From: a virus
IMG/VR virus record: IMGVR_UViG_3300034102_003113
Length of the DNA stretch: 64,000 nt
Strand: one strand, 5' to 3'
The position numbers and the translations under genes are program-made. Under the pieces are notes generated by a model. The model saw only the letters and a program-made list of their open reading frames with translations. It did no database searches and was not told where the DNA came from. Positions 2,108 to 64,000 of the stretch are shown here, one piece after another; positions within the stretch are counted from its first letter, which is position 1; every line of letters begins with the position of its first letter.

Positions 2108-2362
2108 ATGGCGCACTTTGCTAAATTAGACGAGAACAACAAAGTAGTCGAAGTTATTGTGGTATCTAACGATGATATCGTTGATGAAAATGGAGAAGAA
2201 AACGAAGAGATTGGTATTCAATTTTGTAGAAAGATTCAAGGAGAAAATACTAACTGGAAGCAAACCTCGTATAATGGAAACACTAGAGGAAGGTATGCTG
2301 GCATTGGAATGTATTACGATGAAATAATTGATGAGTTTGTTATTCTTGCCGGAGATGAATGA
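2108..2362 (+). CDS. conserved small phage protein (MAHFAKLD-type), often adjacent to Gly-rich proteins
   Basis: MAHFAKLDENNKVVEVIVV...WKQTSYN...YAGIG..YD pattern; tight gene packing. Confidence 0.65.
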   Translation: MAHFAKLDENNKVVEVIVVSNDDIVDENGEENEEIGIQFCRKIQGENTNWKQTSYNGNTRGRYAGIGMYYDEIIDEFVILAGDE

Positions 2363-2976
2363 ATATAAAATTACTCGATGATCCATTCCCTCATGTATTA
2401 ATTGAAAACTTTTATAGTGAAAAAGAGTTAGCATTAATACTAGAAGAAATTAAATTTTTATCCCATCCAAACAAATTATACAAACCAGGAGTTCATCACG
2501 CTAGTAATTCAGAACTTACTGAAAGCAGAGCACTACACCTGGAAAAAGCATATGCTATGCCAGAGTTATCTAATATTCTTCAAGTTACAAAGAAGACATT
2601 AGATACCCCATTCATATCAACAATCGTAAATAAATGGCCTCATTTATTACGTCTCAGATATGTTAATATGATTATCACAAAGTTAAGATACTACCACGAT
2701 GGAGAGGGATACCAACCTCATACAGATATTGGACATGAGTTTTTAACCTTCTCATATTTCCACACCACACCAAAAAAGTTTAGTGGTGGGGAATTGTATT
2801 TTCCGCAATACAATTACGAAATTGAGTGTTCACATAATACTCTCATTTTATTATCTGGATATGTAGAGCACGGTGTAAAAAAAGTATCTATAAATGATGA
2901 TGCTTATTGGAATGGTGATGGGAGATACTGTATATCTCAGTTTATGAGTGTAAAGAATAGTGATAATTATGTCTGA
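2359..2976 (+). CDS. 2OG-Fe(II) oxygenase (prolyl-hydroxylase-like)
   Basis: HTD (HxD), FSGGELYF, distal H (EHGV) and 2OG-binding R (RYCI). ATGA overlap with the upstream gene. Confidence 0.85.
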   Translation: MNIKLLDDPFPHVLIENFYSEKELALILEEIKFLSHPNKLYKPGVHHASNSELTESRALHLEKAYAMPELSNILQVTKKTLDTPFISTIVNKWPHLLRLRYVNMIITKLRYYHDGEGYQPHTDIGHEFLTFSYFHTTPKKFSGGELYFPQYNYEIECSHNTLILLSGYVEHGVKKVSINDDAYWNGDGRYCISQFMSVKNSDNYV

Positions 2977-27997: not shown

Positions 27998-28022
27998 ATT
28001 TTTGTATAAATCTCAGAGAAGC

Positions 28023-28586
28023 ATGTTTCCTCAAACCATTGTAGTCCTTGGAGCCGATCGAGTTGGCAAATCCACCATCGTAGAAAACACCAAGAACGAT
28101 CTGATCTCTCGGGATATTTGCGTCCGCTCATTGCATTTCTCTGGTCCTCAGCCCCATCATCACACTCCTATTCAGCAATATATCGATCCGTTCCAATCTG
28201 CACTTGATCAAGAAGCCCAAGTAGTTATCTGTGATCGTGGGTTTTCAGAAGTATGTTTTTATGAGAAGTTTCGTCGTCATATCGAGATCTCCGAAGAATG
28301 GGCCAATTCCGCTGAGTCGTTCTTCTCGGCATATAGTCAGAGCATTAAAGTCTTTCTTGTAGAGCGGACTTGGGAATGGAGTCTTCCTTTCCATATTATC
28401 GAGATCAATACTCTCTATCCTGAGTGTTCAGATTATTATCTTGAGATGCAACTCAAAGCCCGCTATAAGGAACACGTAGAGTATTATGCCTATATGAGAG
28501 ACTATCTTGCAAATCGTTCCCTGCTTTCGGATATCCAGATCATTGCTCCTACCTCAAGGCATTTCTCTCTGGCAGATGTGGTTTAA
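28023..28586 (+). CDS. thymidylate-kinase-like dNMP kinase
   Basis: GADRVGKST P-loop, HFSGP, VICDRGFSE..Y. Likely start is ATG 28023. Confidence 0.7.
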   Translation: MFPQTIVVLGADRVGKSTIVENTKNDLISRDICVRSLHFSGPQPHHHTPIQQYIDPFQSALDQEAQVVICDRGFSEVCFYEKFRRHIEISEEWANSAESFFSAYSQSIKVFLVERTWEWSLPFHIIEINTLYPECSDYYLEMQLKARYKEHVEYYAYMRDYLANRSLLSDIQIIAPTSRHFSLADVV

Positions 28587-49512: not shown

Positions 49513-51618
49513 ATGTCAGTTTTACGATTTACAGCTTCTGGAAACCTTAAGTTAGATAGAAATGTTAAGTATGTAAGGGCTAGTATTAATATTAGTTGGA
49601 ATGACGAGTCGGCTCTTTGGGGTACTGCATTAAAGAGTCTCTCATTCAATGATGATAACAACACGGTTCAGTGGTCTACAACCCAAGATAGTGGAAATGC
49701 CTCAAGGAATTTTAAAATATCTGGTAGTACAACCTCAGCAACTGAAGTTTCAGTAACTTATCAATCTCAGAACACTCCACTTAACATAGATAAAAAGAGT
49801 GATACAAGACTTGCGTTTCTTGATGGGGATGGTACTGATGCTAATGCTACAGTTACACTTAGTATCGATGAGGTGGTATACTTTACTCCTGCCGAAAATC
49901 CACCTCCGCCAGGAACTACACCATCACCTGTTGGACCTACTTCTTGCCCCGCTCCTACAGACTGGGTAAATATCCTTCCACCATGCGGACGACCACCATC
50001 TGGATTAAGTTCTCCTGACGGACTACAAATTTCAAAATCTGGGCAGAATCAGATAACTCTTAATCTAAGAAACTATACAAATAAGTTAGTAACTTTAAAA
50101 ATTACGCATGAGAGAGACCCTGGATCTGTTTGGACCCAGAGTTTTGATTTTAATATACCTAACTGTTCAGATATTAGTCCCAACACAGGCGGTACTCCAT
50201 ACGCAAAGGCCGGATATTCCAACTCAAATATAACTGGAGTTAACACATTTTACGTATATAACGTAGATGGTGGAGATTACAATTACGTTTTCAATCATAG
50301 TTCTAATCCTGGTCCTCGCCCTTTGCGCACAAACTATAACTTAGTATGTAACACCGAGTGTTCTACTAACCCAGATGGGACTCAAAATTGCGTTACAACT
50401 TGCAGTTGTGAACCCTACCAGGAAACCTATGGTGGCTCATGGCCTCATTGCCCCACTGGAGTAGCAGTTTCCAAAAATGGAGGGAGCAGAGTCCAATGGC
50501 AGTTTGAAGATGGCGGCGGTGGAGACTATAATGACCAGAAAGTTACCATCGAGGTGGTGAGTGTAAGGAACGCGATTAGTTCCACTGGTCCTATCTGCAC
50601 TTCAGCGCTTAAGAGCAGTGTATGGATCTCTGATGGAAGTGATCTCGCTGCAAATGGTAATTGCATTAGTGACTATAAAGACCACTCTAACAAAATCAGG
50701 TTTAGAATCCCATCTCTGAAAACATCAAAAACTACATTCACCTCCCCTGTTTGTTCTTCTTCATTCAGAGGTGTTGCAGGAGCCGCGGCTCCAGGTGAAG
50801 ACCAAGGATCATCTAGTTCAGAGTACTCTGTTCTTCATATTTTTAATAGAGACTTCAAAAACACTGAATCATTAGTATCTGGTTCGGGTCTAATTGTCAC
50901 GCCACAGAGCGAAGGTGATGTATACATCGGGACCCTCCCCAATCCTAGTTTAAATACCACTTCAAGAAAACATTACTTAGTTCAATTCACCGATGGAACA
51001 ACAGTTTCAGCAGGTGCAAGTAATATTGATGTTACCATAGGGCAGAATTTAACTGCCGATGGATTAGTCTCTCCTATAGTTGTATCTAAAAAAGAACAAG
51101 TAAGTACAAGTTCTCTTCGTGTATGGTTTTATATCAACCTACAACAAAATGAGAGTTCTACCGAGGATGTTATCCATGTCTTTAATGACGATACAAACAC
51201 AACAGATGATGGGCTTAGCGACCTAGTATTCCCTGGAGTTACTATAGTCCCTCAACAACTTACAGACCCTGGCAATGAGACCGCGGGATTTGAAACATTA
51301 GATGCAACAAATAAAAAGCATTATCTACTTACTTTTACAGACTCAACAATCGTTAATTCGGACGCATCGAATATTAATATCATTATAAACCAAAATAAAA
51401 CCGCGAGCAATATCACTGCTAGAATCGGCATCTCTAAAAAAGAACGAGTCGATAATAAGAACGTTAGGGTATGGCTCACGGCTTATTACACTACTCGTCC
51501 AGTGGGTAAAGAACTCGATAACACTTTTGTGAGAGATTGGTCTGTAAATCGCTCCAGAGTTGAGGATTTCTCTGGTAATGTATTTGTTAGAAACTGGAAT
51601 CTTAAAAAGATAGTATGA
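49513..51618 (+). CDS. Cys/Pro-rich putative virion adhesin
   Basis: DGDGTDAN and FEDGGGGDYND motifs; duplicated C-terminal domain. Confidence 0.55.
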   Translation: MSVLRFTASGNLKLDRNVKYVRASINISWNDESALWGTALKSLSFNDDNNTVQWSTTQDSGNASRNFKISGSTTSATEVSVTYQSQNTPLNIDKKSDTRLAFLDGDGTDANATVTLSIDEVVYFTPAENPPPPGTTPSPVGPTSCPAPTDWVNILPPCGRPPSGLSSPDGLQISKSGQNQITLNLRNYTNKLVTLKITHERDPGSVWTQSFDFNIPNCSDISPNTGGTPYAKAGYSNSNITGVNTFYVYNVDGGDYNYVFNHSSNPGPRPLRTNYNLVCNTECSTNPDGTQNCVTTCSCEPYQETYGGSWPHCPTGVAVSKNGGSRVQWQFEDGGGGDYNDQKVTIEVVSVRNAISSTGPICTSALKSSVWISDGSDLAANGNCISDYKDHSNKIRFRIPSLKTSKTTFTSPVCSSSFRGVAGAAAPGEDQGSSSSEYSVLHIFNRDFKNTESLVSGSGLIVTPQSEGDVYIGTLPNPSLNTTSRKHYLVQFTDGTTVSAGASNIDVTIGQNLTADGLVSPIVVSKKEQVSTSSLRVWFYINLQQNESSTEDVIHVFNDDTNTTDDGLSDLVFPGVTIVPQQLTDPGNETAGFETLDATNKKHYLLTFTDSTIVNSDASNINIIINQNKTASNITARIGISKKERVDNKNVRVWLTAYYTTRPVGKELDNTFVRDWSVNRSRVEDFSGNVFVRNWNLKKIV

Positions 51619-51926
51619 GGGTCACATCAATATCCGCTTCGGGTCGTAGAGCCCGACCACCCAAGTGGTGGTGCGAGTTAGTAGAAAAAGTACCCAAGGT
51701 ATATTTACCCTGGCTCAGACCAAAAGTCTGGACACGTGAACTGGCACAGAAGTGGATGGATAGCATCCCATCAAAATGCCCCTTTGAAAGGCAGTGGTGG
51801 ATAGGGGACAAACTGGTACTTTTTATCCCGGCTCTATGCTCCTTGAATCCGCTCTCCACCCAACTCTACTCGCTACGTCTTGAAGCGCAGACTTATCTAT
51901 CTAGACTTGAAGTACCCCAAGAGTAG
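51615..51926 (+). CDS. Mo-nitro_C-like domain protein (cyanobacterial; not a nitrogenase)
   Basis: IPSKCPFER...IPALCSLNPL..QL..LR..A..YL matches the family pattern as I recall it. Confidence 0.75.
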   Translation: MRVTSISASGRRARPPKWWCELVEKVPKVYLPWLRPKVWTRELAQKWMDSIPSKCPFERQWWIGDKLVLFIPALCSLNPLSTQLYSLRLEAQTYLSRLEVPQE

Positions 51927-53633: not shown

Positions 53634-54629
53634 ATGAGTAGCATCCTAGAGCATAACAAGATGATCTTTAAGAAGGACACTGGGTTTGATTTCCCAGAGT
53701 TCTACGACTACTATGAGCGTACAGTGGCAAGTGTATGGCGTCATCAAGAGGTAGCCATGGAATCCGATCTCCGCGATTGGCAATTCAACTCTACACCTGA
53801 CGAGAGGGCTGTTATCGCCGGGATCCTCAAGGGATTTGTTAGCGCAGAGTTGGGAATCGGATGCTACTGGGCAGATGAAGTATGCCGAATCTTCCCCAAA
53901 CCAGAGATTCAGGCTATGGCTAAAGCCTTCTCATTCTTTGAGACTATCCATGCCGCTGCCTATTCCTACCTCAATGATGTTCTTGGACTCAAGGAGTACG
54001 AGGAATTTATCAACGATCCCGTCACCTGTTCTAAGATCGATACATTTTTCTCTAAGTATCCAGATAAGGTCGCTCTTGCAGTGTTCTCTGGAGCGGGGGA
54101 AGGTGTAAGTCTATTCAGTTCATTTGCTGTGCTCCTTAGCTTCAATAAGGATGGTAGGTACAAGGGTCTGGCTCAGATTATTTCCTGGTCTGCCATTGAT
54201 GAGCAGACTCACTCCGAGGCTGGATGCCAACTCTTCAAGAGATTGGTGGAAGAGACAGGACTATCAGACTCCGATCGCCAAGCCATCTATGAAGGTTTCC
54301 AACTCGTAGTAGACAAGGAATCCTCCTTTATCGACCATATCTTTAACTCAGCGTATATCTCCTCAATCGACGCCAGTGAGTTGAAAGCTTATATTAAGAA
54401 CAGGGCAAATGAACGCCTACTTCTCCTTGGTCTTGACCAGATGTTCAAACTATCAACCGAAGAACTTACAAAGGCTAAATCAATCTCATCTTGGTTTGAT
54501 CCGATGGTCAAAGGGGCAAGTAGCACAGATTTCTTTGCCGCTTCTAAAGATGGTGCTAATTACGTAGCCAAAATCTCCCAAGATTTCATGGCTGTAGATC
54601 TTTCCGCCTTAGACCTTGTTCTTGTCTAA
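53634..54629 (+). CDS. nrdB: class I ribonucleotide reductase beta subunit
   Basis: W..EV.M..D..DW, ETIHAAAY, EGVSLFSSF, DEQTH, C-terminal DFF...NY. Confidence 0.93.
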   Translation: MSSILEHNKMIFKKDTGFDFPEFYDYYERTVASVWRHQEVAMESDLRDWQFNSTPDERAVIAGILKGFVSAELGIGCYWADEVCRIFPKPEIQAMAKAFSFFETIHAAAYSYLNDVLGLKEYEEFINDPVTCSKIDTFFSKYPDKVALAVFSGAGEGVSLFSSFAVLLSFNKDGRYKGLAQIISWSAIDEQTHSEAGCQLFKRLVEETGLSDSDRQAIYEGFQLVVDKESSFIDHIFNSAYISSIDASELKAYIKNRANERLLLLGLDQMFKLSTEELTKAKSISSWFDPMVKGASSTDFFAASKDGANYVAKISQDFMAVDLSALDLVLV

Positions 54630-54632
54630 GAA

Positions 54633-54788
54633 ATGATCAAAGAACCTATTTGCACCAAGGGTTATTGGGTGGTTGAACTTTCTGATGGTTATCAAATCAA
54701 ATTCAATGACGGCGAAACAGCCCAAGATTTTTATCTACTAAATAAAGCTAGAGAAGAACAAATTTATGGCAATCCATCCAAACCCTGA
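54633..54788 (+). CDS. small hypothetical protein (51 aa, not in the ORF track)
   Basis: Hand-translated MIKEPICTKGYWVVELSDGYQIKFNDGETAQDFY...; fills the gap after nrdB. Confidence 0.45.
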   Translation: MIKEPICTKGYWVVELSDGYQIKFNDGETAQDFYLLNKAREEQIYGNPSKP

Positions 54789-54972
54789 CCGAGATGAGTC
54801 TTTGATGATCAAAGACCATGGCACAACATGTCTAATCACTGACATCAAAGCCGATGGATATCTCCGCAGGGCACGAATGAAAAAGAATACAACACCACCA
54901 ATCGACCGATACTCTAGACCTTGTGGTGGTAGAGGCGGGTTTGATGACTTTGTGGAGAGATGGCATGAATGA
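54766..54972 (+). CDS. small hypothetical protein (cyanophage-type)
   Basis: MAIHPNPDRD...GTTCLITD. Confidence 0.5.
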   Translation: MAIHPNPDRDESLMIKDHGTTCLITDIKADGYLRRARMKKNTTPPIDRYSRPCGGRGGFDDFVERWHE

Positions 54973-55375
54973 CTTTAGAACTCCAGATGGTTGGAGTGTA
55001 AGAGGACGGGAGCAAGGTGGCCGAGATTTCTCAGACTCCAAGGAAATGTGGAAGCAATGGAGAAACTCACCCTATGAGGTAAGTAATAAAGGCCAAGTAA
55101 GACGAAAAGGAAGCGGTGAAGTCCGTAAACCTAGAGACGATGGACGTAAGCATCACAGAGTTAATCTAACTTGGGATGGTAATCGTGAGGAACCAATGCT
55201 CCATCAAATGGTTATGGAACTATTCGGTCCGCCAAAGCCTAAAGGAAAGAATATAGTAATCCTCCATAAAGATAACAATGGAACAAACAACTCCATCTCT
55301 AATCTAAAATGGGGAACTAAGTCAGAGAACGTACAACAGGCGCATGACGATGGGTTAATCGATAACTCAAAATAA
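54965..55375 (+). CDS. NUMOD4-HNH homing endonuclease
   Basis: YEVSNKGQVR (NUMOD4); HQMVMELF, ILHKDNN..NN.ISNLKWGT.SEN. Start is ATG 54965. Confidence 0.85.
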   Translation: MNDFRTPDGWSVRGREQGGRDFSDSKEMWKQWRNSPYEVSNKGQVRRKGSGEVRKPRDDGRKHHRVNLTWDGNREEPMLHQMVMELFGPPKPKGKNIVILHKDNNGTNNSISNLKWGTKSENVQQAHDDGLIDNSK

Positions 55376-55401
55376 TCGTCCACTAATTAACCAAATAGCA
55401 T

Positions 55402-55466
55402 TTAACCTAGACGCGGAGTAACAGACCATTACATCTAGGTTAATTTGTTATGCTCTATGATAAAAT
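55402..55466 (+). promoter_or_regulatory. 10-bp inverted repeat plus extended -10 promoter of nrdA
   Basis: TTAACCTAGA (55402-11) and TCTAGGTTAA (55434-43); TATGATAAAAT at 55456-66. Confidence 0.55.
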
Positions 55467-55487
55467 TAATTTACCCACTTTGATCAG

Positions 55488-57404
55488 ATGCCAGAACTTC
55501 AAGTACCAGAATGGATGAGTAAGGAAGCCGTGGATACCCTCTCAAGGGGGTATCTATGGAATGCGGAGACCCCCCGTGGGATGTTTGAACGAGTCTCAAA
55601 TCAAGCCGCTAAGATCCTTGAATATCCAGAATTAGCCGATGATCTTTTCGAGGTACTCTGGCGTGGGTTTTTAGGTCTTGCTACTCCAGTAGCCAGCAAC
55701 TTTGGCACGTCTCGTGGGTTACCAATTAGTTGCTACTCAACTCATCTCTCCGACTCGGTCCAGTCCATCTACTCCCACCTCAAGGAAGTCGCTGCTCTAT
55801 CAAAGAATGGTGGTGGAGTAGGAGTATATCTCGGTGACATCCGCCCTTCTGGATCTCCTATTGCCTCTGGTGGGAAGAGCACCGGCATTGTTCCTTGGGC
55901 TCGGCAATATGACCAGTGTGCTTCTGTAGTCAGCCAAGGTGGAGTGAGGAGAGGAAGTTTTGCAATGTATGTCCCTATCGACCACCCTGATCTTGCAGAG
56001 TTGCTCCGCACTAAAGACCACTCTCAAGGTGACCCGCGGGATTTTGTTGATAGCAATATCGCCGTCTCTATCACCGATGAGTGGGTAGAGAGCATGTTGG
56101 CTGGAGATCGTGAAAAGCAAAAGATCTTTGGCGAGGTGCTTAAGGTTCGGATGATCAGCGGGTCACCATACATCATTTATATTGATAATGCCAACCGCGC
56201 CAATCCTGAATGCTATACCCAACGTGGTCTTAAAGTAAGTCTTAGTAATCTCTGTTCAGAGATCTTCCTCCATACAGATGAGAACCATACCTTTGTCTGC
56301 GTACTCAGTTCTATCAACCTTGCCCGATGGGAAGAATGGAAAGACTGGAGAGGAGCAAAAACTGGCAAATCTGTACCTGAGTTGGCCGTGTACCTCCTCG
56401 ATGCGGTCGTAGAGGAGTTCTGTCATAAGGGCGATCGCACTGCATCCATGGGACGGAGTGTTCGTTTCGCTCGTAAATCCAGAGCTCTTGGCCTGGGTAC
56501 TATGGGTCTCCATGCACTCTATCAGTCTAAGAATCTTCCGTTTGCATCTGAGGAAGCCCGTGTCCTAAACATCGAGACACATAGATTCATCAAAGAGCAG
56601 GCAATTAAGGCCTCTGAGGAGATGGCAATCAGATATGGCGAACCAGAATGGTGCGAGGGAAGTGGCCGGAGACACACTCACCTGATGGCCATTGCTCCAA
56701 CTCGTTCTAACTCTGTTATCTGCGGAGCTGTGAGTCAGGGCATCGAACCCATCGATGCTAATTACTATGTCGCTAAGCAAGCAAAAGGTACTTTTGTTCG
56801 TAAAAATCCCTACCTTGAAGCGTACCTAGACTCAGTCGGGAAGAACACCGAGGAGGTATGGGAAAGCATATTGGAGTTCAGAGGATCTGTCCAGCATCTC
56901 GATTTCCTATCCGAGGAGACCAAGGGTATCTTCCTCACAGCTCGTGAGATGGACCAGTTTGAACTTGTTAAACAAGCCTCAGATCGTCAACCCTATGTTT
57001 GCCAAGGGCAATCCCTCAACCTCTTCGTAGACCCTGAGTCCTCCCCAGAATATCTCTTCAAGCTCCACCTAAGTGCCTGGAAGGGTGGCCTGAAGTCCCT
57101 TTATTACCTCAAGAGTAGTTCTTTACTCGTCAAGAGAAAGAAACTCGAGACGGTATCTAAGACCGCAAAAATCATCACAAAGGAAACTTGCCCTTATTGC
57201 ACCATGGCAAAGTCCCTGCTCAAAGCAAAGGGATACAAGATTGAGGAGATTGATCGCGCCAATGTGCCTGACTCTGAATTCCCCTACCGCACTGTGCCTC
57301 AGATCTGGATCAATGGACAGTACATTGGTGGATACACAGAACTGGCAGAGAAGATTGGCACTCCAGAAAAACAATATGGTGAGTGTACTGCCTGCGAGGG
57401 TTGA
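55488..57404 (+). CDS. nrdA: class I ribonucleotide reductase alpha subunit with fused glutaredoxin domain
   Basis: ISCY, GGGVG, SQGGVRRG, SNLCSEI, VCVLSS, IAPT, KSLYY; then TCPYC...TVPQIWINGQYIGGY and terminal CTAC. Confidence 0.95.
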   Translation: MPELQVPEWMSKEAVDTLSRGYLWNAETPRGMFERVSNQAAKILEYPELADDLFEVLWRGFLGLATPVASNFGTSRGLPISCYSTHLSDSVQSIYSHLKEVAALSKNGGGVGVYLGDIRPSGSPIASGGKSTGIVPWARQYDQCASVVSQGGVRRGSFAMYVPIDHPDLAELLRTKDHSQGDPRDFVDSNIAVSITDEWVESMLAGDREKQKIFGEVLKVRMISGSPYIIYIDNANRANPECYTQRGLKVSLSNLCSEIFLHTDENHTFVCVLSSINLARWEEWKDWRGAKTGKSVPELAVYLLDAVVEEFCHKGDRTASMGRSVRFARKSRALGLGTMGLHALYQSKNLPFASEEARVLNIETHRFIKEQAIKASEEMAIRYGEPEWCEGSGRRHTHLMAIAPTRSNSVICGAVSQGIEPIDANYYVAKQAKGTFVRKNPYLEAYLDSVGKNTEEVWESILEFRGSVQHLDFLSEETKGIFLTAREMDQFELVKQASDRQPYVCQGQSLNLFVDPESSPEYLFKLHLSAWKGGLKSLYYLKSSSLLVKRKKLETVSKTAKIITKETCPYCTMAKSLLKAKGYKIEEIDRANVPDSEFPYRTVPQIWINGQYIGGYTELAEKIGTPEKQYGECTACEG

Positions 57405-57439: not shown

Positions 57440-57907
57440 ATGCTACCCCAGCAAGATATGAATTTCGACTACGCCAGGTTTATCGATGAAGGCTATGCTT
57501 CTCAGCAAAAGTACGCTAAAGCTGCAGGACAACCTGGCCCTTTGGATGAAAACCTCTCCAGTAATGATCGCCATGCAAAGGTGATTGAGTACATGGGCCA
57601 TCTCATCGAAGAGACTATTGAGGCCCGAGTGTATGTCCCACGGCGTAGTTGGAAAACCAATGAACCCTCGTTCCTTGACTCCAATAAAAACCGTGAGGAG
57701 TTTATCGCTGAATGCTTTGATATTCTTCTCTTCCACCGGGCAATTTTGGCTTATGCCGGAGTTACTGGGGATGAATTTGCTGAGGTTGCAGCACGGAAAC
57801 TCGACTATAACTCAAAACGTAAAGATCACATCACCAATGGCACCGAGTCCGCTCCTGTTGATCCGTCTAAAGAACTTCAAGGAGACTGCCCTTCAGCTTC
57901 TTTCTAA
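57440..57907 (+). CDS. all-alpha dNTP pyrophosphatase (dimeric dUTPase / T4 gp56 dCTPase-like)
   Basis: EETIE, RSWK, AECFDILLF, K..YN..R. Confidence 0.7.
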   Translation: MLPQQDMNFDYARFIDEGYASQQKYAKAAGQPGPLDENLSSNDRHAKVIEYMGHLIEETIEARVYVPRRSWKTNEPSFLDSNKNREEFIAECFDILLFHRAILAYAGVTGDEFAEVAARKLDYNSKRKDHITNGTESAPVDPSKELQGDCPSASF

Positions 57908-57915
57908 ATGATACA

Positions 57916-58092
57916 ATGAACAAACGACCGATTCAAAGACTCCTACAGGATACCTCTGAAGACCGGTGTTTAAATTGTGACGGGAGGGGGTTTGAGATCA
58001 TCACTCATACCTCTCCTGATGGATACGTAGAACCAAACGAGGTACAGGAATGTGAACATTGCAATAGCACTGGAAAACGCATGGGGAATTAA
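57916..58092 (+). CDS. small DnaJ-type zinc-finger protein (58 aa, not in the ORF track)
   Basis: Hand-translated ...CLNCDGRG...CEHCNSTG... Confidence 0.6.
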   Translation: MNKRPIQRLLQDTSEDRCLNCDGRGFEIITHTSPDGYVEPNEVQECEHCNSTGKRMGN

Positions 58093-58549
58093 ACCGGAGT
58101 CTTCGGTTTTAGTTCTTAATGCCACCTATGAACCGATAAACATCACAAGTTGGAAAAGGGCTATCATCCTTCTTGTAAAGGAGAAAGCTACGATTATCTC
58201 GGAGAAGGTAATCCGTCTTATCGACTATGTTCGTGTTCCTGTATCCAAAATTATGGAAGCAAAGCCATCTCGGGCGATGATTTACAAACGAGATGGGCAT
58301 AAATGCCAATATTGTGGCTCTACGAGGGGATTGACAATTGACCATGTAATTCCTAAGAGTCGTGGAGGTGGGGATACTTGGCAGAATTTAGTTGTTGCGT
58401 GTAGCAAATGTAATACATTTAAGAGCAATAAACTCTTAGAGCATACAGGAATGAAACTTGTACGAAAACCCACAGCCCCGGTAAATAAGATCATCTTCGT
58501 GATTTCCCAAACTAAAGACCCAGAATGGCAACAGTATAATTATATTTGA
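58052..58549 (+). CDS. HNH endonuclease (McrA-like, cyanobacterial type)
   Basis: VLVLNATYEP, RD...CQYCG, TIDHVIPKSRGG..TWQNLVVAC..CN..K. Exact start uncertain. Confidence 0.9.
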   Translation: MNIAIALENAWGIKPESSVLVLNATYEPINITSWKRAIILLVKEKATIISEKVIRLIDYVRVPVSKIMEAKPSRAMIYKRDGHKCQYCGSTRGLTIDHVIPKSRGGGDTWQNLVVACSKCNTFKSNKLLEHTGMKLVRKPTAPVNKIIFVISQTKDPEWQQYNYI

Positions 58550-58598: not shown

Positions 58599-59165
58599 AT
58601 GGACTTTTATTTCTCTTTTGGTAAAAAGAAACCATCAGAAAGATCAATGATTATCTCCGCAGCATTTATCTGGGGAATCTTTGAGGCCATAGTAGATCCA
58701 TTACTTGATTTCATCAATCGTAAGGTTTTAAATAGTTTTGATGGAGAGAAATTAAAGTTGGTATTTGATGAGTTAGATATTTTTTGGCTTAGAAATGGGC
58801 AAAATAAGCATTATTCTAACTCTGACATTCGTCTTATTATATGTTTATTTTTGAGATCAGTAGAAGATAACCAACTAACTAGAAAAGAACTCTTAGCGCT
58901 CACTAACTTTATCCAGAGACATTGGGTAGCATCTGAAGCTTTAAAGAAGACTTTTACTCAAACTGATGAAGTTATCGAGGCGCATGTGGAATCCACTGTG
59001 GATCAGGCCATCGAGTTATATGAAAAAACATATATGGAAAAACCACAAACCCCAGAAGAGTTTGTGGCCAGTACTGCAGAGATAATATTCCATGAACCAG
59101 ACGGGAGTAAGGCTCAAGAACTGCTTGGTGGGATGATGGAGATAAAGAATAAGTTTTTTTACTAA
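58599..59165 (+). CDS. hypothetical protein
   Basis: 188 aa ORF with a moderately hydrophobic N-terminal segment. Confidence 0.55.
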   Translation: MDFYFSFGKKKPSERSMIISAAFIWGIFEAIVDPLLDFINRKVLNSFDGEKLKLVFDELDIFWLRNGQNKHYSNSDIRLIICLFLRSVEDNQLTRKELLALTNFIQRHWVASEALKKTFTQTDEVIEAHVESTVDQAIELYEKTYMEKPQTPEEFVASTAEIIFHEPDGSKAQELLGGMMEIKNKFFY

Positions 59166-60376
59166 ATAACCCAAAGAGGCTTCATAGGATCCTTGGAAGC
59201 AGTGTTATTTTGTCTCAGGATTTTATATGTCCCATCATCCTGGGTCTCTGGACTGACCCACTCTCTATTACCATCTAGTGCCTCAGAGATTTCTTTAATC
59301 CAGTCTCCGGCTGTACATGCCGGGACGTTCTGGCAGATCACGTTACTATGCTTTGTAGGAATGTGTACTTTAGCTGCGTAATCGTCAGGGAATCCCATTA
59401 AGGCCAACCCTTCCGCGATAGTCAACCATCTATCTTCGTAGGGATGCATGAGATAAGGAAGTGACTTCCACATTAGACTCTGTGTTCTATACCAGGATAG
59501 TTTAATACTTCCATCCATAATATTTTTTCCAGCTTTTTTCTTTTCAAGCGTGTAATTCAACCAGCGATTAGCCTTCTCATCCTTGACAACTCTCGCCGCT
59601 TCTTCTAACCACCCAGAGTCGTAGATTACGTTCCAGGCAGAGGTCATTCTCTGAGATGCAACATTGGAGAGAATATCTTGCTTAGTAGAACCAACATACT
59701 TCGACTCAATAAACTGCCATAATGGATCTTCACTTGGTTTTGTTCTTGACTTATTAACAGATTCTGACTCAGCAAACTTACCTTCTTTGAGGAATTGATG
59801 AAAAGGAACAAAATCTTTTTTAATTGGTGAAAGTACTGGGACTTTATCTCCCTTCCATAAGAAAAAGAAACTTCTTGTCCGTTCTTGTGGCACTCCATGA
59901 TTAATCGAGGTGGTCTTTACCAGACTCATCGTATAACCATGACCCTGAGCTAGAGTGTTAATTCTTTCCGCAAACTCCTCGCCCATCTTAGAGTAAAGAG
60001 CAGGAGCATTCTCTACCATAATTGCCTTAGGTTTAATCTTTGACATAGCAAATTCTGCTGCATTGTACATATGTACGTTGCTAGGAGCTGAGCATCCCCG
60101 CGGATTATTTGCTTTATCCCCAGATGTGGTATTTGCCATAGACAACCCAGCACAAGGTGGAAGTGATGTAATGATGTCTACATAGGCATTAGGAAACTGC
60201 TCCTCCTCAAAGTCATAGAAAGGCACTTTGTTCATGTATTGAAGACAATACTGATCATTGGCTCCAAACACACTCCCCCATGAGGCGATCCATTCAGGAT
60301 CTGATCCTAATGCCATAGAAGTTCCAACAACACTTCCTCCCACTAGAGGGATGATATGCCCATGAGTATACGCCAT
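59162..60376 (-). CDS. C5 cytosine methyltransferase-like protein
   Basis: PPCAGLS (motif IV), VENAP (VI), GVPQERTRSFF (VIII), R.LTIAE..LMGFPDDY (IX), QNVP (X). Motif I is atypical (IPLVGG). Confidence 0.8.
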   Translation of the reverse strand: MAYTHGHIIPLVGGSVVGTSMALGSDPEWIASWGSVFGANDQYCLQYMNKVPFYDFEEEQFPNAYVDIITSLPPCAGLSMANTTSGDKANNPRGCSAPSNVHMYNAAEFAMSKIKPKAIMVENAPALYSKMGEEFAERINTLAQGHGYTMSLVKTTSINHGVPQERTRSFFFLWKGDKVPVLSPIKKDFVPFHQFLKEGKFAESESVNKSRTKPSEDPLWQFIESKYVGSTKQDILSNVASQRMTSAWNVIYDSGWLEEAARVVKDEKANRWLNYTLEKKKAGKNIMDGSIKLSWYRTQSLMWKSLPYLMHPYEDRWLTIAEGLALMGFPDDYAAKVHIPTKHSNVICQNVPACTAGDWIKEISEALDGNREWVSPETQDDGTYKILRQNNTASKDPMKPLWVI

Positions 60377-62189: not shown

Positions 62190-63026
62190 ATGACTCTGTC
62201 ATTTGATTATCAGTACATTAAGATTGCAAAAGAGATCCTGACCGAAGGTACCGAGGTTATCGGCCGAAACAATCTCCGCTATAAGCAGATGTTCGGTCAG
62301 ACAATCAAGATCGATCTTCGGGAGGGATTTCCTGCTCTCACGATCCGTAAGATGCCCGTACGTAATCTCTTCCGAGAGTTTATGTGGGATGTCAATGGAG
62401 ACTATCAAGTAACCAATCTCGGTCCTGCCAAGCACTTCTGGGACTTTTTGGCCGATACCGAAGGCCGTCTTGCAGGGTCTTACGGACGTTCCTGGCGATC
62501 CTGGCCTCAAGTCTGCCCAGAGCAAAATATGCAATGGGAGAAATTCCGTAATGAACCATTCGACCAACTCAAGTGGATCTGGGAACAACTTCGCACAAAT
62601 CCAACCAATCGCCAACTTGTTCTTCAGACTTTCAATCCTGCTTACGATTCTCTTCACTGTCCTCCTTGTCATCCTAACCTCACTTTTTCTAGTGATGGGA
62701 CTTATCTTGATTTGATGGTTAATGCTCGGAGTAATGACATGGCCACAGGAGTCCCTCTGGATATGTTCCGTTATGGCCTCCTTACTACAAAGATGGCGCA
62801 GGATGCCAATCTTACTCCTCGATTTGTGATGTTCGCCTCGGCCAATAACCACATCTATTCTCAGAATGAGATGGCCATTGAATCGATCATCAAGAACGTG
62901 CCCATGGCACCGTGTGATGTCTGGATCAATAATGAGAAGTCACTTTTCGATCTTGATCCTGAGGCTGATTTTGAACTGATTGATTACTTCTCCCATCCCT
63001 CAGCTCGTATGGAGGTGGCTAACTGA
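62190..63026 (+). CDS. thyA: thymidylate synthase (ThyA)-family enzyme, predicted dCMP-specific (methylase or hydroxymethylase)
   Basis: DLREGFP, YG..WR.W, DQL, PPCH (Cys160), RSND...GVPLD (Asp191 where TS has Asn), HIY. The symbol is family-level only. Confidence 0.85.
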   Translation: MTLSFDYQYIKIAKEILTEGTEVIGRNNLRYKQMFGQTIKIDLREGFPALTIRKMPVRNLFREFMWDVNGDYQVTNLGPAKHFWDFLADTEGRLAGSYGRSWRSWPQVCPEQNMQWEKFRNEPFDQLKWIWEQLRTNPTNRQLVLQTFNPAYDSLHCPPCHPNLTFSSDGTYLDLMVNARSNDMATGVPLDMFRYGLLTTKMAQDANLTPRFVMFASANNHIYSQNEMAIESIIKNVPMAPCDVWINNEKSLFDLDPEADFELIDYFSHPSARMEVAN

Positions 63027-64000
63027 TGCCTATTCCCTCCTACGATTACACTTCATCCCTACTCGAAGATGTATTTGAGCCCGTCATCGATCCTTATTGT
63101 CCGGTTGTCGTTATTGATTTCAAAGTATACGCTCATGCCATTAATAAGTACGCTGAGTTGGCTTCGGAAGTTGCTAGGAATGATGATGAGTTAAAGACAA
63201 TCATGAAGGCCATGTGGGCCTATAAACTCAACCGGGGACCTGACATGCTCCAGTCATTCCCCTTTGTTGGATTGATTGTAGATGACCTTAAAGGCCAATT
63301 TGAGCCAGAGTTTTCTGAGGCATCTACCACTGGAGTTGGGTATTGGAGGCATATCGAAGCTCATAAGATTAATCTTGCAGAGTACAAGGGTGGTAGAGGA
63401 GAAAAAACGCCGTTCTTCTACCTAACAGAGGCCGCCGGGTATGAATACATTCTCTCCCAAGGCTCCACCTTCCCCTACTTTGCTAAGGAGTTCTTTGAGG
63501 CAGATGATATTGCAGGACATATCTGCAGACTGAAAAGAAAAGCCAAAAAGAACTCTGTATTAGCCCAAAGACAGATCATCCTCTCCACGGTGGATGGGGA
63601 CTGGCAAGGACTTGTATCCGACTCTCATGATATTGTCTGGGCCAATACCGGCCCATGGCTCCCTCGCCTCCGTTCTGAGACAGAAGTTTGCGATTACTAT
63701 CTCCGCAAAGACAAACTAATTATCGACTCCGCCTATGGTTGCTATACTGTAAAGGAGAAGGTCGGTGATGCCGGAGATAACCTTATGCCTGGAACACCAC
63801 TGCGATTTTTTGACTTATACAATGAAGATTCTGAATGGCGTTTTACAAAAGAAGACACCCAAGCCATATCAAAAGTACTTAACTCTGACACTCCTTCAAA
63901 CAGGGAAGATCACCTACAATCCGCAAAAAAATTTCTCTCCTCTAAGGGACTTTTCATGCCAGAGATTGGTGAGACCCAGTATGATGAAAAACAATTCTTC
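63026..64000 (+). CDS. 5'-3' exonuclease/flap endonuclease (T4 RNase H / T5 D15-like), 3'-truncated
   Basis: Not in the ORF track. Hand-translated from ATG 63026: VVVIDF, YWR, YKGGR, FEADDIAG, STVDGDW, VGDAGDNL. Confidence 0.85.
   Translation, partial: MPIPSYDYTSSLLEDVFEPVIDPYCPVVVIDFKVYAHAINKYAELASEVARNDDELKTIMKAMWAYKLNRGPDMLQSFPFVGLIVDDLKGQFEPEFSEASTTGVGYWRHIEAHKINLAEYKGGRGEKTPFFYLTEAAGYEYILSQGSTFPYFAKEFFEADDIAGHICRLKRKAKKNSVLAQRQIILSTVDGDWQGLVSDSHDIVWANTGPWLPRLRSETEVCDYYLRKDKLIIDSAYGCYTVKEKVGDAGDNLMPGTPLRFFDLYNEDSEWRFTKEDTQAISKVLNSDTPSNREDHLQSAKKFLSSKGLFMPEIGETQYDEKQFF

Follow-up and report, generated by a model that had tools for sequence, protein, structure and literature searches.

A ThyA homologue with a predicted dCMP-type active site in TIM5-like cyanophages, and conflicting pointers to its product

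On which pyrimidine nucleotide does a phage-encoded ThyA homologue act, and what does it make of it? This question is raised by an open reading frame (ORF, positions 62190-63026) in a 64,000-nucleotide stretch of viral DNA (IMG/VR record IMGVR_UViG_3300034102_003113; hereafter the window), which encodes a thymidylate synthase (TS)-like protein with aspartate in place of Asn177 of E. coli ThyA. Position 177 determines pyrimidine specificity, and Asp at this position marks the TS homologues of phages and contigs with modified cytosine (PMC8670742; 10.1101/2024.12.05.627091; PMC13326640); exchanging Asn for Asp (N177D, or N229D in L. casei) turns TS into a methylase of deoxycytidine monophosphate (dCMP) (PMC8670742; 10.1101/2024.12.05.627091). 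Among cultured phages, the window is closest to S-TIM5, S-TIM54, S-TIM61 and S-TIM66, Aurunvirus cyanophages with marine Synechococcus as host. We estimate at roughly 80% the probability that the gene encodes a dCMP-specific C5 one-carbon transferase, with a 5-hydroxymethyl or a 5-methyl product, that feeds a pre-replicative modification of cytosine.

Aspartate at the pyrimidine-specificity position

The predicted protein is a complete member of the ThyA family. It matches the PF00303 Thymidylat_synt profile (E=2e-54, covering 2-265 of 266 profile positions) and phrog_160 (E=4e-64), and it has all the residues that define membership of the PF00303 superfamily, namely the catalytic Cys, Glu58, Tyr94, Arg166, Asp169, His207 and Tyr209 (E. 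coli numbering). Its C-terminus (...RMEVAN) aligns with that of E. coli ThyA (...KAPVAI) through the last residue, with 55 residues beyond Tyr209 in both proteins. An AlphaFold2 (AF2) model built with 77 homologues reached a mean predicted local distance difference test (pLDDT) score of 95.7, and its best Foldseek matches were the E. coli and L. casei TS, with template modelling (TM) scores of 0.87-0.92 to the E. coli enzyme. Relative to E. coli ThyA, about 11 residues are inserted within residues 106-124, after the WRxW motif and before the DQ helix, where model confidence is lowest (pLDDT 83-87).

The specificity position was located through the motif RSNDMATGVPLDMFRY, found in the protein. 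Its GVPLDMFRY segment aligns by phmmer to GVPFNIASY of solved TS structures, which places Asp191 at E. coli Asn177 and Cys160 at the catalytic Cys146. The same equivalences, together with that of His161 and His147, were obtained in HMMER alignments to solved TS and in two independent MAFFT alignments. Other counterparts are Glu63 (E. coli E58), Tyr98 (Y94), Leu87 (Trp83) and Asp183 (Asp169), and Arg127, the phosphate ligand supplied by the partner subunit, is replaced by Gln in the TIM5-like ThyA homologue. Where a canonical TS has Asn, this protein thus has Asp, and so does its whole clade.

To see how widely this residue is shared, we searched 5.8 billion proteins and obtained 88 homologues at 42-99% identity, of which 83 matched the motif as a regular expression, three full-length sequences were read by eye and two were fragments ending before the motif. 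Asp occupies position 177 in all informative homologues (86/86); the sole match with Asn (P0089) stood at 28% identity. We also ran HMMER exhaustively against 1.8 billion cluster representatives and then inferred a maximum-likelihood tree, in which the window protein groups with S-TIM5 in a clade that is monophyletic (support 0.89-0.99) and whose 31 representatives all carry Asp. Of the 156 sequences at the node enclosing this clade, 113 have Asn177 and make up the rest of the radiation. The clade is distinct from the lineages of the Xp12 5-methyl-dCMP synthase and T4 gp42, and therefore represents an independent Asn-to-Asp lineage. A profile of the clade, run against IMG/VR to find relatives of intermediate distance, matched nothing but TIM5-like loci and very distant ones.

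These results bear out what had been seen from the letters of the window. That sequence-only reading had placed Asp191 at the Asn177 position next to an intact Cys160, in a full-length, TS-like protein of 278 residues ending in RMEVAN, and had proposed the alignment with ThyA and T4 gp42 and the tree reported here; coverage of PF00303 and end-to-end alignment with the E. coli enzyme agree with it. It had also considered that close homologues might all have Asn, Asp191 being a sequencing error; since Asp occurs in every informative homologue, both such an error and a strain-specific mutation are ruled out.

Some further features of the family were observed alongside. The window protein has four cysteines (109, 157, 160 and 242), and in most TIM5-like homologues the catalytic Cys lies in a CxxC arrangement (CPPC or CPGC) that could permit a disulfide or redox switch. 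The idea of such a Cys157-x-x-Cys160 switch is weakened by the sequences of relatives, as four close ones have Thr and basal ones have Ile at 157, so that it would not be obligatory. Two metagenomic or contig-encoded Asp177-type homologues are fused to other domains: a 504-residue protein (P0160, metagenomic) has a C-terminal LOG/SLOG 'lysine decarboxylase-like' domain, and a 447-residue protein (P0092; L038 8021-9364) has an N-terminal NUMOD4-HNH endonuclease, which may be an in-frame homing endonuclease or a gene-calling artefact.

The S-TIM5 'ThyA' (AEZ65733.1) and its orthologues in S-TIM54, S-TIM61 and S-TIM66 share 80% amino acid identity with the window protein, along with the same Asp, CPPCH motif and tail, a C5 methyltransferase gene upstream and a flap endonuclease gene downstream. 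DNA similarity to the window differs from this picture, being about 77% and confined to the ThyA gene, which indicates that the window comes from a different species that stands further off within the TIM5-like lineage. The sequence of the window occurs on a 135-kb JGI metagenome contig (Ga0453725_0000009), and an exact 40-mer was not found in IMG/VR. Genome context beyond the 64-kb window was taken from S-TIM5 and from IMG/VR relatives whose TS homologues are 80-88% identical to that of the window.

In these relatives, the ThyA homologue is not the only candidate source of thymidine monophosphate (dTMP). ThyX is complete in S-TIM5 (E=5e-48) and is also found in three IMG/VR relatives (G002, G003 and G005), which would make the ThyA homologue redundant for dTMP synthesis; G003, the one complete relative in IMG/VR (159 kb; TS homologue 88% identical), has both ThyX and an ORF resembling the T4 DNA alpha-glucosyltransferase (AGT). 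S-TIM5 further encodes a dCMP deaminase, 90 kb from the ThyA homologue, whose crystal structure has been solved according to two papers. Because Asp is clade-wide, ThyX is separate and the accessory genes are typical of phages that modify cytosine before replication, we read the enzyme as dCMP-type and consider it probable that chemically modified cytosine is incorporated into the DNA of the TIM5-like phage.

A working TS, converting deoxyuridine monophosphate (dUMP) to dTMP, or a dual dUMP/dCMP enzyme, would instead provide a second dTMP route beside ThyX with no DNA modification. This is very unlikely. The remaining TS catalytic residues are intact, the fold is canonical, GenBank labels the orthologues ThyA, and at 137.5 bits the protein exceeds the 108.35-bit cut-off of the NCBIfam TS equivalog TIGR03284. 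N177D mutants of TS, moreover, keep some dUMP activity. Set against this are the near-invariance of Asn177 in real TS (113/156 at the tree node) and the fixation of Asp in the TIM5-like clade, the supply of dTMP by ThyX, the lack of a detectable dihydrofolate reductase (DHFR) in S-TIM5, the Gln in place of Arg127, and scores far under the cut-offs of four strict NCBIfam TS equivalogs (NF002497 157/327, NF002496 135/325, NF002499 133/405 and NF002495 89/327).

The sequence-only proposal that the enzyme methylates or hydroxymethylates dCMP and is not a TS is thus strengthened, again by inference, by the clade-wide Asp and by the ThyX, dCMP deaminase and T4-type AGT genes of the relatives. Its expectation that automated annotation would miss this specificity proved right, as GenBank describes the S-TIM5-group orthologues merely as 'ThyA' or 'thymidylate synthase' and TIGR03284 accepts the protein; its comment on how unusual a ThyA-family gene is for a cyanophage is correct insofar as ThyX, too, is encoded in the related genomes.

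Hydroxymethyl or methyl product

Given a dCMP substrate, the two products considered most closely were 5-hydroxymethyl-dCMP and 5-methyl-dCMP, and for the TIM5-like enzymes genome context and residue rules point opposite ways. Our narrow choice, which falls just short of even odds, is 5-hydroxymethyl-dCMP followed by alpha-glucosylation on DNA.

Genome context, through the glucosyltransferase and the lack of DHFR, favours this choice. The 426-residue S-TIM5 protein annotated 'DNA alpha-GT' matches PF11440 over the cut-off (37 bits) and the phrog_2888 alpha-glucosyltransferase over its full length (E=3e-150), and T4 AGT is its only meaningful sequence match in the PDB (E=2e-14). An AGT-like ORF is also present in G003 and in another IMG/VR relative (G004) and is 83-99% conserved across many small contigs, while the IMG/VR fragments without AGT or without ThyX end before the corresponding region. 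Such a conserved T4-type enzyme needs a hydroxyl acceptor, and no Tet_JBP match was found in S-TIM5 at E<=1, which speaks for a hydroxymethyl product. No homologue of an oxygenase-like ORF in the window (2359-2976) was found in S-TIM5 or four large IMG/VR relatives, so that it would be an accessory gene rather than a core partner of the glucosyltransferase; a TET/JBP route to hydroxymethylcytosine (hmC) was accordingly discarded. Furthermore, DHFR was not found in S-TIM5, which fits a hydroxymethylase, since this enzyme regenerates tetrahydrofolate (THF) without DHFR, and the 5-methylcytosine (5mC) phage Xp12 has one. Candidate nucleotide-pool enzymes also speak for this choice, namely the dCTPase-like ORF of the window and the nucleoside monophosphate kinase or all-alpha NTPase genes close to the TS homologue in clade relatives.

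In the pathway that we propose, ribonucleotide reductase (NrdAB) would make the deoxycytidine di- and triphosphates dCDP and dCTP, and a MazG/dCTPase-like protein encoded 3' of nrdA (57440-57907) would return dCTP to dCMP. Cys160 would attack C6 of dCMP, with Asp191 holding the N3/N4 face of cytosine; Glu63 would open methylenetetrahydrofolate (CH2-THF) and Tyr98 take the C5 proton, giving an exocyclic methylene intermediate whose hydration would yield 5-hydroxymethyl-dCMP and THF. This product would be phosphorylated by a P-loop kinase candidate (28002-28586) together with the host nucleoside diphosphate kinase (NDK) and incorporated into DNA, where the T4-type DNA alpha-glucosyltransferase homologue of the related genomes would glucosylate hmC. 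The ThyA homologue would be the committed step of pre-replicative cytosine modification, with the phage's dTMP coming from ThyX.

Residue rules from the literature lead elsewhere. Water is kept out, and a methyl product formed, when residue 143 is bulky and hydrophobic; Asp or Glu at 143 gives hydroxymethyl, and D169N gives 5-hydroxy (PMC6400193; PMC13326640). We checked these rules against TS homologues, taken from GenBank records, of phages with known DNA chemistry. In all five homologues from phages with hmC or hydroxymethyluracil (hmU) (T4 gp42, SPO1, M6, ViI and phiW-14), Asp occurs three residues before the catalytic Cys (Cys-3, the 143 position) and a residue other than His directly after it (Cys+1). 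MilA likewise has an acidic residue, Asp, three residues before the catalytic Cys and a non-His after it (PMC13326640). The RB69 5-hydroxy-dCMP synthase homologue combines Glu at Cys-3 with D169N (reading RSQN), and the residues at Cys-3 and Cys+1 are Leu and His in E. coli ThyA and RB69 Td, and Asn and Pro in Xp12.

Measured by these patterns, several observations weigh against hydroxymethylation. The acidic Cys-3 residue of the gp42 type is absent: position 143 (Cys157 in the window protein) is mostly Cys in the TIM5-like homologues, with Thr in four of them and Ile in basal clade members, and is never Asp or Glu. The other gp42-type marks are likewise missing, as the protein has Gly-Ser/Ala-Tyr instead of Ser/Thr-x-Tyr at the catalytic Tyr, a tail of E. 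coli length and His161; His147 and Trp80 are kept, and 74 of 80 full-length homologues end in V-A-x (by a tally of listed four-residue endings). The D145N mutant of the T4 enzyme is inactive (PMC6400193), so that the acid is mechanistically needed there. Non-acidic 143, His147, Trp80 and a TS-type tail together fit hydride transfer, that is, methylation, and the protein shows the Xp12-type combination of Asp191, non-acidic Cys157 and retained Asp183 (Asp169). On residues alone it looks like a dCMP methylase, and like neither a 5-hydroxy-dCMP synthase nor a gp42-type hydroxymethylase. The context itself also has weaker points: the glucosyltransferase, ThyX and the deaminase are seen in the relatives and not within the 64-kb window, and the assignments of the pyrophosphatase and the kinase in the window, both under curated thresholds, are plausible but weak.

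A dCMP methyltransferase (5-methyl-dCMP synthase), in which hydride passes from THF to the methylene intermediate to give 5-methyl-dCMP and dihydrofolate (DHF), is accordingly a credible candidate, with the balance of probability leaning against it. Its product would be phosphorylated and incorporated, with 5mC replacing C fully or partly, and/or be deaminated to dTMP, and the glucosyltransferase would act elsewhere. Methylation is what the residue rules predict from Asp177, non-acidic 143 and retained Asp169 (PMC13326640), and the Asp found at Cys-3 in 5/5 hydroxymethylase homologues is not found in the TIM5-like candidate. Tyr94, Glu58 and Arg21 are conserved along with His147, Trp80 and the full-length TS tail; basal clade members (Ile143, Trp83, His147) correspond to a plain N-to-D TS, from which Ile-to-Cys is a conservative hydrophobic change. 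The model is closest to canonical TS (TM about 0.9), with L. casei N229D bound to dCMP (1NJC) among its matches, S-TIM5 has a dCMP deaminase as does Xp12, and natural 5-methyl-dCMP synthases are common in metaviromes (10.1101/2024.12.05.627091). A methylase would nevertheless leave the conserved T4-type alpha-glucosyltransferase without an acceptor on 5mC, there being no TET/JBP oxygenase, and would have no DHFR to recycle the DHF released by methylating every cytosine, in genomes where ThyX avoids DHF and by comparison with Xp12, which carries DHFR. The TIM5-like enzymes also fall outside the Xp12 clade and differ from Xp12 at 143, 147 and 83.

Two of these positions provide residue evidence on the side of hydroxymethylation. 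According to PMC6400193, solvent access in E. coli TS is governed by Trp83 and Leu143. Both gate positions carry smaller residues here (Leu87 and Cys157), and the crown group of the clade shows W83L and I/L143C/T; these changes shrink side chains tied to solvent exclusion (PMC6400193), which argues for a hydroxymethyl product and against a methyl one. We therefore consider it possible, at somewhat less than even odds, that dCMP hydroxymethylation arose independently in the TIM5-like enzyme, which lacks the acidic water-activating residue of all hydroxymethylases compared here and keeps the TS closing tail; water would then enter through an enlarged 83/143 gate (Leu87 and Cys/Thr157).

A conserved C5 cytosine DNA methyltransferase gene lies beside the ThyA homologue, so that a DNA-level and a predicted nucleotide-level cytosine modifier, seemingly redundant or mutually exclusive, are neighbours. 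This also counts against the hydroxymethyl product as a full replacement, since such a methyltransferase would serve no purpose on DNA whose cytosines all carried a C5 substituent from the start; replacement may therefore be partial. The gene fits neither full-replacement model comfortably, which suggests either that cytosine is replaced in part or that the methyltransferase acts on something other than phage DNA.

Least likely among the readings considered is a dCMP enzyme with another product or role, making either 5-hydroxy-dCMP or, by salvage, 5-methyl-dCMP that the deaminase turns into dTMP, with no modified base in DNA. TS homologues that make 5-hydroxy-dCMP with flavin are known (PMC13326640), in Xp12 deamination turns part of the 5-methyl-dC nucleotides into thymidine nucleotides (10.1101/2024.12.05.627091), and the conserved C5 DNA methyltransferase suggests that unmodified cytosines remain. 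On the other side, a 5-hydroxy-dCMP synthase of the RB69 gp48 type was rejected, as the diagnostic D169N is missing (the protein keeps Asp183, which is almost invariant) and Cys rather than Glu stands at position 143, and pure salvage would be redundant with ThyX and the dCMP deaminase and would leave the glucosyltransferase unexplained.

Neighbouring genes and related loci

The features of the window are collected in Table 1. The module containing the TS homologue runs in the order nrdB, HNH, nrdA-glutaredoxin, a 155-residue ORF, HNH, an unknown ORF, the C5 methyltransferase (on the opposite strand), three unknown ORFs, the TS homologue and the flap endonuclease. The succession of TS homologue and flap endonuclease is kept in S-TIM5 and in distant relatives, and ties the TS homologue to the replication module.

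Table 1. Location of the ThyA homologue, its key codons and other features of the window.
Feature	Position	Strand	Basis and remarks
ThyA-fold dCMP-type (Asp177-type) pyrimidine C5 one-carbon transferase, predicted	62190-63026	+	278 aa; PF00303, AF2 model, all-Asp clade
Cys157-Pro-Pro-Cys160 codons	62658-62669	+	Cys160 = catalytic nucleophile (E. coli Cys146); Cys157 = Leu143 'water gate' position; His161 (His147) next
Asp191 codon GAT	62760-62762	+	E. coli Asn177 position (pyrimidine specificity); alignments
nrdB	53634-54629	+	PF00268; module 53634-57404; would supply deoxynucleoside diphosphates
HNH endonuclease ORF between nrdB and nrdA	54923-55375
nrdA with fused C-terminal glutaredoxin	55488-57404	+	PF02867; PF00462 at residues 562-613; fused reductant of ribonucleotide reductase
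MazG/dCTPase-like nucleotide pyrophosphohydrolase candidate	57440-57907	+	all-alpha, 155 aa; directly 3' of nrdA; proposed dCTP to dCMP step
HNH endonuclease ORF after the pyrophosphatase-like ORF	58052-58549
C5 cytosine DNA methyltransferase	59162-60376	-	PF00145 E=3e-21; phrog_116; 1.8 kb upstream of TS homologue; same place in S-TIM5
Flap endonuclease / 5'-3' exonuclease	63026-64000	+	overlaps TS stop codon, runs off window; phrog_26716 E=4e-93; weak PF02739
P-loop nucleoside monophosphate kinase-like ORF, weak	28002-28586	+	candidate kinase for modified dCMP
2-oxoglutarate-Fe(II) oxygenase-like ORF	2359-2976	+	PF13640 26 bits, just below cut-off; phrog_61 E=5e-13
Small ORF with Mo-dependent nitrogenase C-terminus domain	51615-51926	+	PF06967 E=1e-14

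Two of these ORFs were examined for the roles assigned to them in the proposed pathway. The 155-residue protein reaches 17.7 bits against the PRA-PH model, under the cut-off of 21.3, and matches the phrog_12184 'nucleotide pyrophosphohydrolase' (E=2e-5); an acidic EExxE...ExxD motif is invariant in its 31 homologues. Its AF2 model is a four-helix structure (pLDDT 89.7) whose best Foldseek matches, although weak (E 0.1-1, prob about 0.96), are the mouse and human dCTPase DCTPP1, iMazG and DR2231, and its family profile found no match among PDB sequences. It is probably an all-alpha nucleoside triphosphate pyrophosphatase and a candidate counterpart of T4 gp56. Searches of S-TIM5 and G003 with the MazG Pfam model gave no match, only a sub-threshold match to PRA-PH. 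For the kinase candidate, matches to AAA_28 (21 bits) and Thymidylate_kin (E=0.01) were both under their cut-offs, phrog_761 'thymidylate kinase' matched at E=3e-5, and no match was found among PDB sequences.

Loci of related phages were also inspected. Within 10 kb of the TS homologue, distant clade relatives have genes of the Guanylate_kin, dNK or dUTPase_2 type; the flanks of these distant members hold kinases and NTPases with no glycosyltransferase or DHFR, and do not decide the product. The dNK-type kinase on the contig of one distant relative has no homologue in S-TIM5 or G003. In an S-TIM5 gene annotated 'kinase' (167522-167986, minus strand; L008 19523-19987), the one domain recognised is the HAD phosphatase of polynucleotide kinase-phosphatase (PF25109, E=2e-18), which is not a kinase domain; a HAD hydrolase gene also adjoins the Xp12 TS homologue. 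On unrelated cyanophage-like contigs, a PF06967 domain (L106 4845-5198 and L107 8164-8628) and an NblA-like ORF are found a few genes upstream of the Asp-type TS homologue.

Significance and comparison with known enzymes

The exchange of Asn177 for Asp is already a routine predictor of cytosine-modifying TS homologues, at metagenome scale (PMC8670742; 10.1101/2024.12.05.627091; PMC13326640). What is new, within the literature searched, is the dCMP-type assignment for TIM5-like cyanophages; new, too, is the conflict between residue-based and context-based prediction of the product. No report of cytosine modification in the TIM5-like lineage was found in that literature, and the papers on TIM5-like phages within it list 'ThyA' and 'DNA alpha-GT' with no remark on DNA modification and contain no statement on the specificity of TIM5-like ThyA (the 2012 PNAS description of S-TIM5 lay outside this search).

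If the hydroxymethylase assignment is correct, a widespread marine cyanophage lineage packages alpha-glucosyl-hydroxymethylcytosine DNA made by a mechanistically atypical hydroxymethylase; this would be the first T4-style hypermodified cytosine for a cyanophage in the literature searched, and would break the residue rule that separates hydroxymethyl from methyl products. Replacement of cytosine in TIM5-like phages would bear on evasion of the restriction and CRISPR-type defences of Synechococcus, on recovery of these phages by sequencing and in PCR-based counts such as polony assays, and on how folate and nucleotides are budgeted in infected picocyanobacteria. If the enzyme is a plain dCMP methylase, the result is an annotation correction of modest interest. 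Either way, the TIM5-like case offers a sharp test of the residue rules for methyl, hydroxymethyl and hydroxy products, and as S-TIM5 is in culture it is directly testable.

Three known systems frame this prediction. The TS homologue of phage Xp12, whose 5-methyl-dCMP synthase activity has been confirmed (10.1101/2024.12.05.627091), shares with the window protein the ThyA fold, Asp177, the retained Asp169 and a non-acidic residue at 143, and a dCMP deaminase is encoded in the phage (within the TIM5 lineage, in S-TIM5). The two proteins are only 23% identical, stand on separate branches of the tree (Xp12 with the PaMx74 enzyme), and differ at three active-site positions, where Xp12 has Asn143, Pro147 and Phe83 and the window protein has Cys, His and Leu. 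Their surroundings differ as well: the Xp12 gene lies in a cassette with deaminase, DHFR and HAD hydrolase genes, whereas S-TIM5 lacks DHFR, has a glucosyltransferase and carries its deaminase 90 kb away.

The dCMP hydroxymethylase of T4, gp42 (PDB 1B5E family; ternary complex in PMC6400193), has Asp at 177 and the catalytic Cys, Glu and Tyr in common with the window protein. Its genomic context is parallel, as T4 has a dCTPase (gp56), a dCMP deaminase and an alpha-glucosyltransferase, for which the sub-threshold dCTPase-like ORF of the window and the deaminase and glucosyltransferase genes of S-TIM5 are candidate counterparts. Identity is 19%, and the differences lie in the active site and at the C-terminus: T4 has Asp145 where the window protein has Cys157, Thr rather than His after the catalytic Cys, and Ser-x-Tyr rather than Gly-Ser/Ala-Tyr, and is without the C-terminal tail (28 versus 55 residues after Tyr209).

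The closest likeness in overall structure is to E. coli ThyA and to L. casei TS N229D, the engineered dCMP methylase (1NJC), with 27% identity, a TM score of about 0.9, the same tail length and all catalytic residues in common except Asn177; the engineered mutant carries the same single switch. In the window protein this switch is natural, and it is accompanied by L143C, W83L, E82F and R127Q and by the 11-residue insertion after the WRxW motif.

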